Part shown: in pieces, positions 2 through 16,359 of the stretch
Numbering within the stretch: position 1 is the first letter of the stretch
Layout: the number at the start of each line of letters is the position of its first letter
Virus record (IMG/VR): IMGVR_UViG_3300020048_003360
Span: 144,023 to 208,022 of that record
Strand: one strand, 5' to 3'
From: a virus
Taxonomy: Duplodnaviria; Caudoviricetes
Length of the DNA: 64,000 bases
Notes under the pieces: generated by a model
What the model saw: only the letters and a program-made list of their open reading frames with translations
Databases searched by the model: none
What the model was told of the DNA's origin: nothing
Translations under genes and position numbers: made by a program

Positions 2-2950
2 AGTGCCCTAAATACGGTAGGTAAAGATAAAACTCTATCTGACGTAGGAACTATGTTACCAATAGAGAAACAAAAATATCTAGATCTTATAAAGTTCTCA
101 GATGGTCCGTATAATGAAAAGACATCACCATTCCCTAATGACAAGGAATTAGTAGCTACAGGAACTGAAGTTAGGACATATATCGATATCGCATCTAAAG
201 AAATTAAAGATCAATTAAGTGGTAAAAGACCTAATCAAACTAAATTAGGTACCACAATCCTAGCTGGCGCTACAGAAGGATTTAAAAAGGCTGGTGTTTT
301 AGGCGCCTTAGCTGGTGGTTCTATGGCATTAACCAATGTAGTTGCTAACAGTTTAATTGGGGATGCCAAGGCTAAGGCTTTAGATCCTAAAAAGATCGCT
401 GGTGACGCACTTAAGTTAGCTACTGGTGAATCTAGCTCTGATATTAATATTTCTGTAAATGGTATTCCTGGTAATTTAAATGCTTTCAATAAAGGTAAGC
501 TAGACGCATTAACTACAATTAGGTATAAAACATATGGTTTAGTAGAGATGGAATTGAGTAAGGTAAAGGCACTAGATGCTTTAGAAACACTCATTAGTAA
601 GAGAGTCGTTTATAAAGGTGATATTGCCCATTGGGAAAGTTCAATTGAGAATGTTATAAATACCATAGGTAGTACATTTGGTGTTAATAACTATACTAGT
701 AAAGAAGCAATTAAGTTTACCTCTTGGTTTAATTTACGTTTCTTACCTGTGTATTTAAACTTTCTTACTACTTTAACTAAACTTACTGGTAGTAAAGTAA
801 AAACAACCACACTAACTACACTCAAACCAGAATCACTATTAGATTTAGCTATATCTATCTACACAACCAGTACTAAAAATGAAGGTAATACCATTAGTGT
901 TTGGAGACTACCCGATAGTCCATGGGATGGATACGTACTGAATGATGAAGTAAAATCAACTGAAGGTAACGTACAGTCCATTAGAGATGGTATTAAAGAG
1001 TCTGTTTTAGCTGAAGAAAATGCTAAAGATAAAGCAGGTCCAGTAAAGAATCCATTCTTAGATAAGGTTAAAGACACCGCATCAAATGTTTTTGATAAAG
1101 CAACTACTGGACTTAGTAACTTTGCTAGTAATATTGGTTTAGGTGCTGTCAGTAAAGGTATTGATAGTGTTTCTTACGATATTGGACAGGCTCTTTTTGG
1201 AGGTAAGGAAGTTACACATGCTGGGAATGGTACTGGTGGCGATATTAACAGCATTCCATTACCTAAAGGAGATGGTTCATGGGATGCTGTAAAAGACACC
1301 ATCGTAGCTGCTTCTAGAATGGTTGGTGTCGATGAAAAAGTAATGGCCACTATGGCCGCAGTTGAATCTGGTTTCCGTACAAGAGTTAAGGCCGAAACTA
1401 GTAGTGCTACAGGTCTTTATCAGTTTATTAAAGATACCTGGAAAAGTATGATTCTGAAGTATGGGAAGAAGTATGGTATACACCCAAGGACAGAGCCCAC
1501 TGATCCTAGAGCAAATGCCCTAATGGGTGCTGAGTATATTAAAGAAAATATTCAGGCGATTAAAGGTACCTTAAAAAGACCATTAACCGATACTGATGTT
1601 TACTTAGCACACTTCTTAGGTGCTGGTGGGGCCAAAACATTCTTTAGAGCAGATACAAATGAAATTGCCGCTAGAGTAATGCCCAAAGCAGCAGCTGCTA
1701 ATAGTAGTATTTTTTATCATGCCAATAGAACACCTAGGACTATAGGAGAAACATATAGTGAAATAAATCGTAGATTTAGATCAAAGGCTAAGAAGTTTGA
1801 AACAGCTGAAATGGGAATGAGTAGTTCAGTACCCACCAATACTAAAGGTGCTACAGCTCCTATTGCTGGTGCTACGCCTAAGGTAGATAAGACGCAACCT
1901 ACTATAGCTAAAGCACCTGAAGCTACAACTACTAGGAAGGGTAGAGGATCTACTACAGTAGATACTAATAAACCAGTTTTAACTACAGTACCTACAATAG
2001 CTAAAGCGGCTAATGATCCTATGGGATCTAAAGTACCTATATTAGCTGCAGTACCTACAGTAGCTAAAGTTGATTCTAAACCTACAGTAGCTAAAGTTGA
2101 TTCTAAACCCACACTAGCTAAAGTTGTTAATGAACCAATGACAACTAAGGTACCTACAGCGCCATTAGGAGGTACTAAATCTAAAGTAGATATCATTCAG
2201 CCAACTCTAGCAGAAGTACCGCCTATAGCTACTCCTAAGGCCCCTAGTGATGTTCCTACTAAAGTAGTACTTAGTGACGAAGATGCAACAGCTAAAGTTA
2301 TTGCAGAAAAAGCATTTGATAACTTAGCCGCCGGAATGCATGCTGATAAAGTTGCTAAGTATGTAGCAAAACACGGTAAGCAACCGTCATGGGCTAATAG
2401 AGACACATCTAGTGGAGTCTCTCTAACTACTGCTAAGTTAGATAATACTTCAGTTAAACTTAACACGACACCAGTTAAGCTTAAAGATGGTGGTCTAGTA
2501 GAAGATAGGAAGTTATTTGAGATTAGTGACCAGACGCCTGGTTTAGTGGCTGCTAGATCTACTACTAAACCAAAAATAAAGGTAGTTAAGAGTAGTGAGA
2601 AAACTGAAAATGACGTTAGTGGTATAGCAAATGGTGGATTTATGTCTCCTAGAGCTAGAGATGCAATTGCTCAAAAAGACTATCAAAAGTCTGCTACTGC
2701 TGAAACACTAAAGAAAGTTAGTAAGACTCTAGATTCTTCACTAAGTGTTAATGAAGATCAATTAGAAGTTTTAAATAAAATACTAGCTACAATTACTAAA
2801 GGTATTGTTAACAAGGCTAAAGCAGACTCCCAATCTACTAGCAAGATTACCAATAGTAATCCACAACCTACTGGCACTAATCACTCTATGAATAGAGGAG
2901 CAAGTAGAGCTCCAGAAGCTCCTGTATCTATGAGTAAAAGAACTGCTTAA
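2..2950 (+). CDS. Virion tail-associated lysin / tape-measure-like protein with SLT lytic transglycosylase domain (phiKZ gp181-like), 5'-truncated by window edge
   Basis: Frame is open from position 2 (SALNTVGKDKTLSDVGT-M53). SLT motif ATMAAVESGF...SSATGLYQFIKDTW...ANALMGAEY...YLAHFLGAGGA, followed by a P/T/K/A-rich linker. The gp181 assignment is from recalled synteny. Confidence 0.8.
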   Translation, partial: SALNTVGKDKTLSDVGTMLPIEKQKYLDLIKFSDGPYNEKTSPFPNDKELVATGTEVRTYIDIASKEIKDQLSGKRPNQTKLGTTILAGATEGFKKAGVLGALAGGSMALTNVVANSLIGDAKAKALDPKKIAGDALKLATGESSSDINISVNGIPGNLNAFNKGKLDALTTIRYKTYGLVEMELSKVKALDALETLISKRVVYKGDIAHWESSIENVINTIGSTFGVNNYTSKEAIKFTSWFNLRFLPVYLNFLTTLTKLTGSKVKTTTLTTLKPESLLDLAISIYTTSTKNEGNTISVWRLPDSPWDGYVLNDEVKSTEGNVQSIRDGIKESVLAEENAKDKAGPVKNPFLDKVKDTASNVFDKATTGLSNFASNIGLGAVSKGIDSVSYDIGQALFGGKEVTHAGNGTGGDINSIPLPKGDGSWDAVKDTIVAASRMVGVDEKVMATMAAVESGFRTRVKAETSSATGLYQFIKDTWKSMILKYGKKYGIHPRTEPTDPRANALMGAEYIKENIQAIKGTLKRPLTDTDVYLAHFLGAGGAKTFFRADTNEIAARVMPKAAAANSSIFYHANRTPRTIGETYSEINRRFRSKAKKFETAEMGMSSSVPTNTKGATAPIAGATPKVDKTQPTIAKAPEATTTRKGRGSTTVDTNKPVLTTVPTIAKAANDPMGSKVPILAAVPTVAKVDSKPTVAKVDSKPTLAKVVNEPMTTKVPTAPLGGTKSKVDIIQPTLAEVPPIATPKAPSDVPTKVVLSDEDATAKVIAEKAFDNLAAGMHADKVAKYVAKHGKQPSWANRDTSSGVSLTTAKLDNTSVKLNTTPVKLKDGGLVEDRKLFEISDQTPGLVAARSTTKPKIKVVKSSEKTENDVSGIANGGFMSPRARDAIAQKDYQKSATAETLKKVSKTLDSSLSVNEDQLEVLNKILATITKGIVNKAKADSQSTSKITNSNPQPTGTNHSMNRGASRAPEAPVSMSKRTA
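2054..2126 (+). repeat. 27-nt tandem coding repeat (PTVAKVDSK x2 plus partial third copy)
   Basis: cctacagtagctaaagttgattctaaa at 2054-2080 and 2081-2107; degenerate third copy to 2126. Confidence 0.9.
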
Positions 2951-12355: not shown

Positions 12356-12589
12356 TTGATAATTTACATCCCATAGAACACTACACAAAATATATTGCAT
12401 AATGCTCTACAGGTTGCACACTAGTAGTTATGGGAGTACTAACGCCATAAAACTAATGACAGCTTGCAGTTATATTAAGAATCACTTAATATAACTACCG
12501 TACGGTTATGAAGAGTGATTAGTTCTTCTACATTCACCGTAAGTTAATCCTCACATTATCCCATAAAGTACGTATGGAATGTTTGGAAT

Positions 12590-12624
12590 TGGTGGGCCCG
12601 CCCGGACTCGAACCGGGGACCAAA
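12590..12624 (-). pseudogene. Orphan tRNA 3' half (Ile-like acceptor)
   Basis: TTGGTC-CCCGG-TTCGAGT-CCGGG-CGGGCCC-A-CCA; no matching GGGCC(C/T)G 5' half found in the cluster. Confidence 0.8.
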
Positions 12625-12628
12625 TTAT

Positions 12629-12796
12629 TTAAATTTCTACGTCAGCTCTTACAAGTGGTCTATTCATAAATTGTTCTGCAACTAATCTATGTTCATAAAC
12701 ATAACCTTCCATTGCTCCAGATCTTACAGCTTCTGGATGTTCAGGATTATAAACCATTCTATATTCATTAACAATACGTAATTCTTTTTTAGCCAT
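12629..12796 (-). pseudogene. Truncated HNH homing endonuclease (N-terminal fragment)
   Basis: MAKKELR...YNPEHP...GYVYEHRLVAEQFMNRPL then a stop before the HH..N..DN..NL motif. RBS ACAGGA precedes ATG 12796; the track's longer start lies inside a tRNA. Confidence 0.65.
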
Positions 12797-12818
12797 TTTT
12801 ATAATCCTGTTAAGTGTT

Positions 12819-12894
12819 TGGTGGGACCGGAAGGAGTTGAACCTTACATTCTTGGCTTTATGAGAACCCTGCTTCACCGTTAAGCTACAGTCCC
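12819..12894 (-). tRNA. tRNA with CAT anticodon (Ile2 or elongator Met; not initiator)
   Basis: GGGACTG-TA-GCTT-AACGGTG-AAGC-A-GGGTT-CTCATAA-AGCCA-AGAAT-GTAAGG-TTCAACT-CCTTC-CGGTCCC-A-CCA. G1-C72 pair; G27.A43 mismatch; bulged T-stem. Confidence 0.75.
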
Positions 12895-12929
12895 AATTTA
12901 CTACATTTAACTTCTCAAAAATTGTGCTC

Positions 12930-13443
12930 CTTAAGATATTTCTATCTATACTGTCATTCTAAATCAAGAGCATTATTTAGAATCTAGACTATGTTATCAC
13001 CATATATTTGGTAGCTCTTACTCACCACACAGGTGGCTTGCTCAAATACTTAGGTATTCCGTTTCTAGTCTCTACACCTTCCTGTTATTCCTTAACGACT
13101 GTACCACTTCGATCCGTGGCCTTGGTAGGAATACTACGAGTTCAGGCTGGCTCGGCGCTGGCATATTAATAACTACCTTAGAACAGTCTTACTGCCGATG
13201 ATTTTTCTTCGGAAAACCATGAAACCATCATCTGCTTCAGATACTTATTAACTTAGCTTTTGCCGAATTTACGGAAATACTACTAGCGGGTTTCCCTTGA
13301 TACGTTACGCCTTTTCGCGTTCGTCTTACTATACCTGATTCCATTAAGGACTCACAAACATTTCTGCTTGCTCTTCGGCGATTATCCTATCCAGGTTATC
13401 GAAAACTGACTACCATATCATTTTTCGCTAGTGACCTATTACG
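12930..13443 (-). ncRNA. Group I intron-type ribozyme A (no tRNA exons)
   Basis: P2 ACTAGCG/CGCTAGT; P3 TTCCGT/ACGGAA; J3/4 AAA; P4 TTCGGC/GCCGAG; P6 GCCTG/CAGGAAGGT; P7 GACTA/TAGTC; P9 hairpins; ends ...TTAAG. Strongly similar to the tRNA-Leu intron. Boundaries inferred by alignment. Confidence 0.85.
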
Positions 13444-13454
13444 ACACTTTATTC

Positions 13455-13721
13455 TCACACTATATTAAACCTACCATCAAACAATAGGTTTTCATTTTGT
13501 AATCTGATGTCTCCAGAGACGTTCAAATAGTAGGCATCCTTAACCACGGAGCCGTCTTCTAGATAAACATTTATCCTTAAGACATGATTCCCAAGCGTTT
13601 CCTTTATGTCCAGAAACACTCTATCCTTTACAGTAACTCTGGTAGTTACTTTAAGGTCTTCACTTTCTCCAATAGTGAAGTCATTACCAATAAAATACCT
13701 AATCATTTGCACCTCCATCAA
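13455..13721 (-). CDS. Hypothetical 88-aa protein between two group I elements
   Basis: GAGGAG RBS upstream; TGA at 13455-13457. Confidence 0.65.
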   Translation of the reverse strand: MMEVQMIRYFIGNDFTIGESEDLKVTTRVTVKDRVFLDIKETLGNHVLRINVYLEDGSVVKDAYYLNVSGDIRLQNENLLFDGRFNIV

Positions 13722-13747
13722 TTAACTCCTCATTAAAGATTGTGCAC

Positions 13748-14200
13748 CTTAGAATGTTTCCATCCATTTAGTCATTTATGGTCAAGTGTATTACCATAAA
13801 TCTAGACTATTATGCTCCTTCATTAACTGTGGTTCATATTAGAGCTTCTGACAGCCATATGGTATTTTAGGTACATCAGAATTTAAGTACCACAACTACT
13901 AATCTACTAGACAACTAACTTAGGATTCCGTTTTTATAATCACACCTTCCTGTCGTGTCTTTGGAGGTACTTCTATCCTCAGTACTTTATGGGGTCTTAG
14001 TCCCACTACAGGCTTGGCTCAGTATCAACATATTCTTTAAAATAGGCTCTTCATTACATTCGGGCAACCCTGCTAGAACTAACCGAATGAATTCTATTTA
14101 CTCAAACCCGTGGCAGGATTTAACTTCGATTTGAGTACCGTCTCTTAAAGAACTTAGTTTTTACTGATTTTACGGAAACTGATATCTTTGATTAGATCAT
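13748..14200 (-). ncRNA. Divergent group I-like RNA B
   Basis: P3 TTCCGT/ACGGAA; P4 TCAGT/ACTGA (compensatory relative to TCGGC/GCCGA); CCAAGCCTG...CAGGAAGGTG; P7 GATTA/TAGTC; P9 TTTATGGT/ACCATAAA; ends ...CTAAG. J6/7 is 3 nt shorter and no clear P1. 5' boundary approximate. Confidence 0.7.
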
Positions 14201-14234
14201 TGTGTCATTTAGAATGGTAGGTAAAGGAATTAAG

Positions 14235-14489
14235 TTTTTACACTACCTTTTTAACCTATTTTATCCATAGCCACGACTACAGTGCTAATCTAAAGTAACC
14301 AGTGCGGTACTATGCTAGGTGCATAATTGTATAACTCTGCCTAGCGCAAAGCGTGTGTCCTTTACTACTAAAGTTCACGGGAGTAAATGAAGCTATGGAC
14401 TTCATTCAGGGATTTTTCTTCTGATTATGCTCATTGCCGAAGATCCACCCGTCGCACGGTCGTATACCCATGTCCATAGCATGGGTTCC
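14235..14489 (-). ncRNA. Candidate structured RNA of unknown class
   Basis: GC-richer non-coding tract with hairpins ACCCATG/CATGGGT and CCGT/ACGG, plus a GCTATGGA...TCCATAGC...GCTATGGA alternative pairing. Confidence 0.35.
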
Positions 14490-14639: not shown

Positions 14640-14656
14640 TTATCTCCTTACTTAAA

Positions 14657-14706
14657 TGGCCTCCCGTAGTGGACTCGAACCACTGACCCCAATCTTAGAA
14701 GGATTG
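14657..14706 (-). pseudogene. tRNA-Arg(TCT) fragment lacking its own 5' acceptor strand and D-arm
   Basis: CAATC-CTTCTAA-GATTG-GGGTC-AGTGG-TTCGAGT-CCACT-ACGGGAG-G-CCA, beginning 6 nt after the CCA of the preceding element. Confidence 0.75.
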
Positions 14707-14712
14707 TTTAAT

Positions 14713-14794
14713 TGGCGGGACAGGTGCGACTCGAACGCACATACTCCAATTACGCGGTTAACGACGGCTTAGAAGGCCGTTGCGATACTGCCCC
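14713..14794 (-). tRNA. Atypical tRNA-Arg(TCT)-like RNA with no D-arm and a 23-nt variable region
   Basis: GGGGCAG-TATCGCA-ACGGC-CTTCTAA-GCCGT-CGTTAACCGCGTAATTGGAGTAT-GTGCG-TTCGAGT-CGCAC-CTGTCCC-G-CCA. Acceptor, anticodon and T stems all pair. Confidence 0.7.
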
Positions 14795-15770: not shown

Positions 15771-15787
15771 TTTGTTCTCCTTATGGA

Positions 15788-15820
15788 AATCCGGCGCTCT
15801 ACCAACTGAGCTATTGAGGA
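15788..15820 (-). pseudogene. Orphan tRNA 5' half (Asn-type), ending at U33
   Basis: TCCTCAA-TA-GCTC-AGTTGGTA-GAGC-G-CCGGA-TT. A TCCTC start is typical of tRNA-Asn; no 3' half in the window. Confidence 0.75.
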
Positions 15821-15830
15821 TTATTGTAAC

Positions 15831-16359
15831 TGGTGGGGGTAATCGGAGTCGAACCGATATACCTTGCGGTGAGGGATTTTACTTACCACTTCGGTTTTCA
15901 CCGCCAGTCTTAGCCCTTGCGGGTTATCTTCTGTTCGTGGTCTGGACTATGCTATCGCCATATTACGATTTATCACCTTGACTTGACTTTACAAGTGATA
16001 GTTTATAGTCAACCGTAACGTAGGCATTCCGTCTCTAGTCTCTACACCTTCCTAATCATTAAAGCGGAGTTCTCGCTGTCTTTCGACGGATATTTCCAAC
16101 ATTAACAGTTTAGGCTTGGCTCGGCGTTGGCATACACTCATTCGTATCTTTTCAGGAACCTATCGTTTCGGTATTACCAACCTGCAAAGAATTTTAACTA
16201 TTGAGTGTGAAGCGTTCGCCGAATTTACGGAAATACTACTAGCGTCTTTCGATTGAGTCATTACGCCAAGACAGGAAAAGCCCGCCGAGACTACCAACTC
16301 ATTTTTCGCTAGTGACCCATTAAAGAGTCCCTTGTGTCTACCAATTTCACCATACCCCC
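15831..16359 (-). tRNA. trnL: tRNA-Leu(TAA) interrupted by a group I intron (exons 16359-16326 and 15881-15831)
   Basis: Joined exons give GGGGGTA...AGGGA-CT^TAA-AA-TCCCT-CACCGCAAGGTAT-ATCGG-TTCGACT-CCGAT-TACCCCC-A-CCA, with perfect stems and a long variable arm. Confidence 0.9.
15882..16325 (-). ncRNA. Group I intron (444 nt, no ORF) in tRNA-Leu
   Basis: P1 GACU|C...GGGUC with U.G at the splice site; P2, P3 TTCCGT/ACGGAA, P4 TTCGGC/GCCGAG, P7 GAGACTA/TAGTCC; terminal G at 15882. Confidence 0.9.

Follow-up and report, generated by a model that had tools for sequence, protein, structure and literature searches.

Orphaned tRNA-intron paralogues in the tRNA cluster of a phiKZ-like jumbo phage and their possible retention as leader RNAs

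Introduction

Group I ribozymes are textbook selfish introns and, beyond the eukaryotic twin-ribozyme introns and one Clostridioides riboswitch, we know of none that has been retained for a job besides its own removal. What such an RNA is doing when it is found outside any tRNA gene is the question raised by a locus in the terminal 64 kb of a 208-kb IMG/VR virus record (IMGVR_UViG_3300020048_003360, positions 144,023 to 208,022; this whole stretch of 64,000 nucleotides is called the window, and positions are counted from its first letter). Since a PhiKZ-type major capsid protein is encoded in the window (E = 5e-192), the source is taken to be a phiKZ-like jumbo phage. All features discussed lie on the minus strand in a 4.2-kb cluster running from about 16400 down to a terminator at 12261-12226. 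Within it, two elements, A and B, which resemble the group I intron of a tRNA-Leu gene in the same cluster, enclose an 88-codon open reading frame (ORF). The reading preferred here, with a probability of about 0.4, is that they are orphaned tRNA-intron paralogues of a single duplicated ribozyme-leader-ORF module and may be kept as cis-acting leader RNAs. A preliminary description of the locus had instead proposed that the ORF is an exon between two introns, possibly circularised.

Homology and anatomy of the two elements

The point of reference for A and B is the intron-split tRNA-Leu(UAA) gene of the same cluster:

15882-16325, minus strand: group I intron of the parent type, 444 nucleotides (nt), in tRNA-Leu(UAA); ARAGORN calls tRNA-Leu(taa) on the joined exons
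15831-16359, minus strand: tRNA-Leu(UAA) gene, with exons 16359-16326 and 15881-15831

This intron is inserted after U33, has its omega-G at 15882, and forms P1 (GACU/GGUC, including a U.G pair) and P10 (UAAA/UUUA). Neither ARAGORN nor Rfam (at gathering thresholds) detects the gene with its intron in place. The supply of UUA-reading tRNA in this AT-rich phage would depend on the splicing of this intron.

A, B and the tRNA-Leu intron can be aligned over the entire group I core (nhmmer, E = 5e-17 for A against the Leu intron and E = 1e-7 for B against A), which bears out the homology seen in the preliminary description and identifies both elements, at the level of sequence, as paralogues of the tRNA-Leu(UAA) intron. 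Equally sound was the view that neither sits in a tRNA: tRNA-Leu(taa) appears in ARAGORN upon excision of 16325-15882 and no tRNA appears upon excision of A or B, nor do the flanks of A and B show significant similarity to the tRNA-Leu exons. Both elements terminate in UAAG (A at 12933-12930, omega-G 12930; B at 13751-13748, omega-G 13748), which is homologous to the UAAG that ends the Leu intron. The Rfam model RF00028, with a curated gathering score of 50 bits, gave a sub-threshold 33.5 bits for A (12957-13316, local E = 2e-6), 19.4 bits for the Leu intron and no match for B. Because the undoubted tRNA-Leu intron scores so low, this threshold is uninformative for a family with such long inserts. 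Helices P3, P4, P5, P6, P7, P8, P9 and P9.1 were verified base by base in both elements, each of which has the P3/P7 pseudoknot and the P3-P4-P6 and P7-P3'-P8 core helices.

12930-13443, minus strand: element A (RF00028 at 33.5 bits, helix check, repeats)
A, minus strand: guide-like GGUCAC 13436-13431; P2 13432-13426/13288-13282; L2 GGGAAACCC 13296-13288
A, minus strand: P3 13276-13271/13062-13057; P4 13267-13262/13156-13151; P5a 13251-13245/13172-13166
A, minus strand: P6a 13146-13143/13084-13081; P7 13070-13066/12991-12987
A, minus strand: P8 with the CCUAAG..UAUGG receptor (P8a 13048-13043/13010-13005)
A, minus strand: P9 12982-12975/12964-12957; P9.1, with a GAAA loop, 12947-12943/12938-12934
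13748-14177, minus strand: core of element B (helix check, alignment, block comparison)
B, minus strand: P3 14177-14172/13931-13926; P4 14167-14162/14024-14019; P5a 14152-14145/14040-14033
B, minus strand: P6a 14012-14008/13953-13949; P7 13941-13937/13809-13805 (GAUUA/UAGUC, one G.U pair)
B, minus strand: P8 with the CCUAAG..UAUGG receptor; an additional 28-nt hairpin, 13854-13827, between P8 and J8/7
B, minus strand: P9 13800-13793/13782-13775; P9.1, with a GAAA loop, 13765-13761/13756-13752
14180-14489, minus strand: structured 5' domain of B, with several hairpins, beginning right behind the stop codon of a 49-amino-acid (49-aa) ORF

Each core is thus complete and in the normal order, A from P2/P3 and B from P3 through to P9. 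The boundary of B, formerly put at about 14200, has to be moved, since P3 starts at 14177 and a folded 5' domain extends to about 14489. The minimum free energy of this 310-nt domain is -87.3 kcal/mol against -68.4 +/- 4.6 for its shuffles (z = -4.11, with 0 of 100 as good). It occupies the place of the P1-P2 region of the family, has an insertion, GGCUAUGGAUAA, beside the guide-like AAUAGGUU (14260-14253), and matches no Rfam family at E<=10, hence no known aptamer. The corresponding z-scores of the Leu intron (-0.4), A (-1.9) and the B core (-2.6) do not separate real from doubtful elements.

A peripheral RNA module of about 65 nt (GTATCTGAAGCAGATGATGGTTTC..GACTGTTCTAAGG) lies in the P5 extension of A (13180-13245), but in P6 of the tRNA-Leu intron of another contig (L006); from its sequence, this module has moved between helices.

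Covariation and the shared leader

In the comparison of A with B from P7' to the leader, the unpaired positions are 86% identical and the P9 and P9.1 stems 42% identical, and all 13 P9/P9.1 pairs are kept by way of seven double compensatory changes and one wobble. Relative to the family, further double compensatory changes are found in P4 (two) and at the base of P5 (one) in B, and in P2.1 in A. The partners of the contacts between GAAA loops and 11-nt receptors are also intact (L2/P8 and L9.1/P5 in A; L9.1/P5 in B).

Past the omega-G, the two elements continue into nearly the same 9 nt, GAGCACAAT and GTGCACAAT, and the motif TAAGGWGCACAAT occurs at just these two sites in the 208-kb record. 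The preliminary description had recognized both the terminal UAAG and these 9 nt; the shared flank is really 29 columns long, of which 23 are identical (79%), a score equalled by 13 of 1000 shuffles. It ends exactly at the start codon, directly past which the similarity of A and B falls to background.

13719-13747, minus strand: leader after B, GUGCACAAUCUUUAAUGAGGAGUUAAUUG; its ribosome-binding site, GAGGAG, is 7 nt upstream of the ATG
13455-13718, minus strand: 88-codon ORF (87 aa, P0001), an orphan, whose own frame has the best codon-usage score, weakly
12901-12929, minus strand: leader after A, decayed, GAGCACAAUUUUUGAGAAGUUAAAUG and then UAG

The ATG of the 88-codon ORF (13718) is 29 nt past the omega-G of B; the distance of 26 nt given before leads to an in-frame TTG at 13721. 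The leader after A reads GAGAAG..AUG-UAG, with the start codon at 12906-12904, the stop codon at 12903-12901, and a tRNA-Met 6 nt further on. No conserved pairing partner for GWGCAC was found within A and B.

Three derived features are common to A and B: the 3' domain, in which P9 and a GAAA-capped P9.1 form two serial hairpins, J4/5, and the 29-nt leader. On these grounds the two would descend from one duplicated module, and the duplication would be old because their peripheral inserts cannot be aligned. Since nearly all of the stem sequence has turned over while the leader, which is not tRNA sequence, stays 79% identical, the fold and apparently the leader too would have been selected after the leader was gained. 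A and B are, then, apparently not simply junk.

The protein P0001 belongs to no PHROG family, has no homologue but itself in 5.8 billion proteins, and its Atlas matches are below the useful range; no relatives of it were found in viral contigs or among the neighbours of other members of the intron family. The frame of the ORF is shut two codons upstream of its start, and it is therefore not a spliced coding exon.

Loss of the 5' splice site and changes in the core

At the site in A that corresponds to the 5' splice site of the family, just two of six positions of the flank AAGUGU can pair with the guide GGUCAC, and the 3' flank contains no partner for P10 there. What had been taken for a 5' splice site of A, 11 nt past the stop of the ORF, is merely where homology to the Leu intron sets in, with no P1 pairing. 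In B no guide can be recognised, the 5' strand of P2 is absent, and the L2 loop is AAA instead of GAAA.

A scan for any helix ending in U.G gave candidate P1 helices of 9-10 base pairs (bp), namely ACCUAUUGU (13489-13481) with GUAAUAGGU (13442-13434) in A, and GUCCAUAGCU (14400-14391) with GGCUAUGGAU (14272-14263) in B. These are equalled by 56-149 of 1000 shuffles for A and by 42-112 of 1000 for B; the scan cannot decide on a 5' site, because it does not recover the known 4-bp P1 of true tRNA introns either. As for exon remnants, the idea that the region upstream of A is what is left of a tRNA-Leu 5' exon was rejected (its score is equalled by 900 of 1000 shuffles), and the similarity of GTGAACTT..AAAGGAC upstream of B is not significant (509 of 1000 shuffles).

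Invariant positions were defined on 30 distinct family members, in which four core blocks are almost invariant. A differs from them at about six positions and B at many more. The changes in A comprise G>A in base pair 7 of P4, resulting in an A.C mismatch, C>A in J4/5, CAA>CAG in J5/4, GAG>GAA in J7/3, GAUAGCA>GAUAACA in J8/7, and C>U in P7, by which the closing P7 pair becomes a G.U wobble. In the group I structure, J4/5, J5/4, J8/7, J7/3 and P4 are mostly the strands that dock P1, and five of the six changes in A fall in them. A retains the G-C pair that binds guanosine, along with P3, P8 and omega-G. In B, J6/7-P7-J7/3 reads UGU|GAUUA|UAAAA as compared with UGUAGA|GACUA|GAG in the family, so that P7 is without the usual bulged A and the 3 nt ahead of it; its J5/4 is UGA. 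While homology of A and B to the family is clear, functional equivalence appears doubtful; both are real, folded RNAs in which splicing has probably been lost.

Relatives of the elements and their origin

Core strings from the window, run against collections of viral sequences, metagenomes and species genomes, retrieved the family. An 18-nt core string is present in at least 120 bacterial species genomes, and in phage contigs the core motif lies inside tRNA-Leu, tRNA-Met/Ile and other tRNAs. We take the family to be the widespread bacterial tRNA-type group I intron of subgroup IC3, as judged from the Azoarcus and Anabaena sequences. With the IC3 introns of Azoarcus tRNA-Ile, Anabaena and plastid tRNA-Leu, and Agrobacterium tRNA-Arg, the family of A and B shares the P3-P4, P4'-P6, J6/7-P7-P3' and J8/7-P7' strings, the GAAA loops docking on 11-nt receptors in P5 and P8, and omega-G. 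Unlike these introns, A and B are without tRNA exons, P1 and P10 and are altered at positions invariant in the 30 relatives; their 3' domain consists of two serial hairpins and not of a closed P9 junction. B, furthermore, has neither P2 nor L2 and carries the additional 310-nt 5' domain.

A distant relative, contig L009, contains the same tRNA-Leu intron, directly followed by a tRNA-Met that is 93% identical to the one behind A. It also contains a dead tRNA-Leu paralogue with a perfect 7-bp acceptor stem (GUUUGAA/UUCAAAC) and a T arm, and with similarity to the 5' exon (D arm, p=0.009) and the 3' exon (p=0.004). The interior of this paralogue is a remnant of the P5 extension specific to B (E=8e-11), and the lineage of B hence started out as a tRNA-Leu intron. 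The preliminary description had named tRNA exons in relatives beforehand as a sign of simple deletion remnants, and this decayed gene with its B-type intron remnant supplies them. The P2.1 loop of the L009 tRNA-Leu intron (about 2330-2420, minus strand) contains an insert with tRNA-like features, GGCGGAACGGTAGACGC..GTTCGACTCTTAC, between the complementary ends CAGGGAT../..TCCCTG; it is not called by ARAGORN, and the intron may thus enclose a further tRNA-like gene.

Elements of the A/B type were not found elsewhere. A scan of IMG/VR with the P3-P4 motif gave none, the B-specific P5 motif retrieved L009 alone, and the P7'-P9 motif gave 38 loci, all chance matches in which nhmmer found nothing. 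The INPHARED phage collection yielded tRNA matches only, and the records of five relatives contain their own tRNA introns and no A/B-type element.

Host-less family members in other phage contigs

Among 36 distinct family members from viral and metagenome contigs, classified by hand, about 19 lie outside tRNAs. The cores of these host-less members are fully conserved and are followed by a short 3' hairpin whose first base is the omega-G; downstream of it lies an ORF preceded by its ribosome-binding site (in L051 the ORF encodes an HNH endonuclease) or, in L077, a terminator. A guide AGGUC matches a hairpin loop ACUU in seven distinct elements (L010, L012, L013, L014 (/L046), L051, L072, L074), AGCCC matches GGUU in two (L044 (/L057) and L077), and in L018/L060 AGCCC stands opposite GGUG, with the fourth pair mismatched. 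This covariation between guide and hairpin loop retains the U.G pair throughout, and suggests that in this class the P1 substrate strand is located downstream of the ribozyme. The resemblance of the A/B leader to a decayed copy of this trailing hairpin is not significant.

A and B belong to a broader and apparently undescribed group of phage ribozymes that are of the tRNA type but occur outside tRNA genes. In the limited literature searched, no account of such host-less group I ribozymes of phages was found, which does not in itself prove novelty.

Two JGI contigs carry whole family introns head to tail, L048 with a 549-nt unit in 2.7 copies and L062 with a 663-nt unit in 3.4 copies. The full copies compared are identical at unit spacing (in L062 just the first two are identical), and in L048 the omega-G of one unit and the guide of the next are just 6 nt apart (TTATTG). 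These repeats could be a tandem array in DNA, or the assembly of a circular intron RNA or DNA.

Leader RNAs, relics or introns

If A and B are kept as cis-acting leader RNAs, copies of the tRNA-Leu-type intron would have been orphaned into the spacers of a rearranged cluster of tRNAs and small ORFs, where the ribozyme-leader-ORF module was duplicated. B would still head the 88-codon ORF, the copy behind A having been reduced to AUG-UAG before tRNA-Met, and selection would have retained fold and leader after the non-tRNA flank was gained. The RNAs would act in cis on the co-transcribed precursor. With the 5'-splice-site chemistry probably lost, the likeliest chemistry to remain would be that of the guanosine site, cleavage after omega-G (3'-splice-site hydrolysis), by which the downstream message or the tRNA-Met precursor would start with the conserved leader; ribozyme-driven processing, also suggested in the preliminary description, is in this form possible. 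Several points weigh against retention as leader RNAs. No relative with the same layout was found in the IMG/VR scans, in INPHARED or in the records of the five relatives. Had the shared flank at one time been a genuine 3' exon, the compensatory changes could be older than the orphaning. The altered invariant positions, about six in A and many more in B, include the guanosine-site strand of B. The leader after A no longer heads an ORF, the cluster tolerates junk such as tRNA halves and an HNH endonuclease fragment, and group I introns usually hydrolyse their 3' site only slowly, as a side reaction.

It is almost as probable that A and B are decaying relics, defunct tRNA-Leu-type introns that duplication, recombination driven by endonucleases and deletion have left behind in the tRNA cluster, with no present function and a good structure because function was lost recently. 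Degenerating introns and remnants of homing endonucleases are known from the cycle of invasion, decay and loss, and T4 contains defunct intron ORFs (PMC2790892). A gutted intron in a dead tRNA-Leu is what L009 offers, with acceptor stem and T arm intact and a B-type remnant inside, and comparable debris lies close to A and B (a tRNA 5' half at 15820-15775, tRNA 3' halves at 14710-14654 and 12640-12587, and the 55-aa HNH fragment). The rewritten catalytic strand of B, the changed invariant positions, the want of P1 and P10, the start codon after A with a stop codon directly behind it, and the failure to find another A/B-type element in IMG/VR all fit decay, and if the leader was once a real exon the covariation could be older than the orphaning. 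Relics, however, are not expected to hold 13 of 13 pairs in P9 and P9.1 at 58% stem change beside an unpaired core that is 86% and a leader that is 79% identical, nor to keep a 29-nt flank that is not an exon. Neither the intact tetraloop-receptor pairs nor the strong structure of the B 5' domain fits them well, and the family homology of A begins and ends within about 2 nt of the intron ends, unlike the product of random deletion.

Splicing in some form is the less probable alternative. That A and B are ordinary self-splicing introns, set at ectopic non-tRNA sites of a polycistronic transcript with new and long P1 helices, we consider unlikely. Both candidate helices do reach 9-10 bp and end in U.G, the guide strand of A adjoins P2 as in the family, a P10 is possible in A between GCAC and GUGU, and the homologous 3' flanks resemble co-converted 3' exons; splicing of A at 13481, inside the last codons of the ORF, would place an in-frame UGA at the junction and shorten the protein by 8 residues. 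But these helices are weakly above chance (4-15% of shuffles), the U.G pair would be 8 bp from P2 as against 3 bp in the family, with P1 docking altered, and in B the P1 loop would measure 118 nt with its exon strand inside a predicted hairpin. The alterations of J4/5, J5/4 and J8/7 in A and the remodelled core of B point the same way. Most improbable by far is the proposal that the 5' site of A is joined to the 3' site of B, or the exon skipped, so that the 88-codon ORF would occur in a circular or alternatively spliced RNA. Its attraction is that, the first 9 nt past both omega-Gs being nearly the same, one guide could accept either 3' site, and that A and B are probably co-transcribed. It needs a functional 5' splice site in A, for which there is no convincing candidate, and the omega-G of B would have to dock in the active site of A in competition with A's own. 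Moreover, neither element is permuted, their cores being complete and colinear, and the permuted, circularising arrangement once suggested for them is thus not what the locus contains. The ORF does lie between two group I RNAs, as had been stated, but not as an exon between working introns, given that A has no P1 or P10 and B no guide. With no P1, no exon-like flanks, a closed ORF frame and no permutation, the basis for exon circularisation or skipping is removed.

Leader RNAs of this kind would have counterparts. The GIR1, or lariat-capping, ribozyme of the twin-ribozyme introns of Didymium and Naegleria (PMC3679873, PMC4167309) is likewise derived from a group I ribozyme, has no P1 or 5' splice site, lies directly upstream of an ORF and has the sole task of making the 5' end of that message by a cut just past the guanosine-site nucleotide. 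It differs in being located inside another intron in eukaryotic ribosomal DNA, in its double-pseudoknot core and in its 3-nt lariat, and the ORF behind B is not a homing endonuclease. Similarly, as summarised in PMC3984707, a c-di-GMP-II riboswitch is combined with a group I ribozyme in a 5' untranslated region of Clostridioides difficile; as in B, a structured domain is followed by a group I ribozyme and then by a ribosome-binding site and an ORF, and the ribozyme acts on the leader of the message and not inside a gene. That system has a working P1, 5' and 3' sites and a known aptamer, whereas the 5' domain of B is without an Rfam match and nothing in it indicates a ligand or a switch.

A broader proposal, rather doubtful at present, is that A, B and the other host-less members form a class of phage 'leader ribozymes' which no longer join exons and act just downstream of omega-G to fix where the next message begins or how accessible it is, as a counterpart of GIR1; the 310-nt 5' domain of B might then be a regulatory module. 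If such RNAs do cut or remodel leaders, phages would repeatedly have turned a tRNA intron into a device for RNA processing. Should A and B prove to be relics, the locus would still show clearly how introns decay in the tRNA cluster of a phage.

The tRNA and ribozyme cluster

In the 5' to 3' direction, the cluster consists of the intron-split tRNA-Leu(UAA), a tRNA 5' half, three small ORFs, two further tRNA-like genes, a tRNA 3' half, the 49-aa ORF, B, the 88-codon ORF, A, tRNA-Met, the 55-aa HNH endonuclease fragment and the 3' piece of a second tRNA-Met.

15775-15820, minus strand: tRNA 5' half, truncated by the ribosome-binding site of the next ORF
14716-14794, minus strand: tRNA-like gene with a UCU anticodon loop (Rfam 34 bits; missed by ARAGORN)
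14654-14710, minus strand: tRNA 3' half with the same CUUCUAA loop as the adjoining tRNA-like gene
12819-12894, minus strand: tRNA-Met(CAU), directly downstream of A
12629-12796, minus strand: fragment of an HNH homing endonuclease, 55 aa (PHROG E=4e-5)
12587-12640, minus strand: 3' piece of a second tRNA-Met, 85% identical to the second tRNA-Met of L009
12226-12261, minus strand: intrinsic terminator, the only strong one in the cluster (14-bp stem and T run)

Because this single strong terminator sits at the end of the cluster, with none found inside the cluster upstream of it, tRNA-Leu, the small ORFs, B, the 88-codon ORF, A and tRNA-Met probably form one transcript. In the tRNA-like gene at 14716-14794 the D arm is almost gone and the variable insert measures 20 nt. 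The HNH fragment reads into the 3' piece of the second tRNA-Met, a gene that appears to have been destroyed by insertion of the endonuclease gene. The locus is also a warning that tRNA and intron scanners overlook most of what such a cluster contains.

No RNA run was among the sequencing runs listed for 12800-14400. The four DNA runs, all of one study and possibly of the source sample, contain no variant without A or B and no sequence differences. In contigs of three DNA runs, 16411 is joined to 12204 through 25 other letters (TATTCTAGAATCACACATTTAGTAT), a joint that links the end of the cluster to its start; in run X1 it is covered as deeply as the phage itself. A tandem duplication of the 4.2-kb cluster is possible, as is a circular form.

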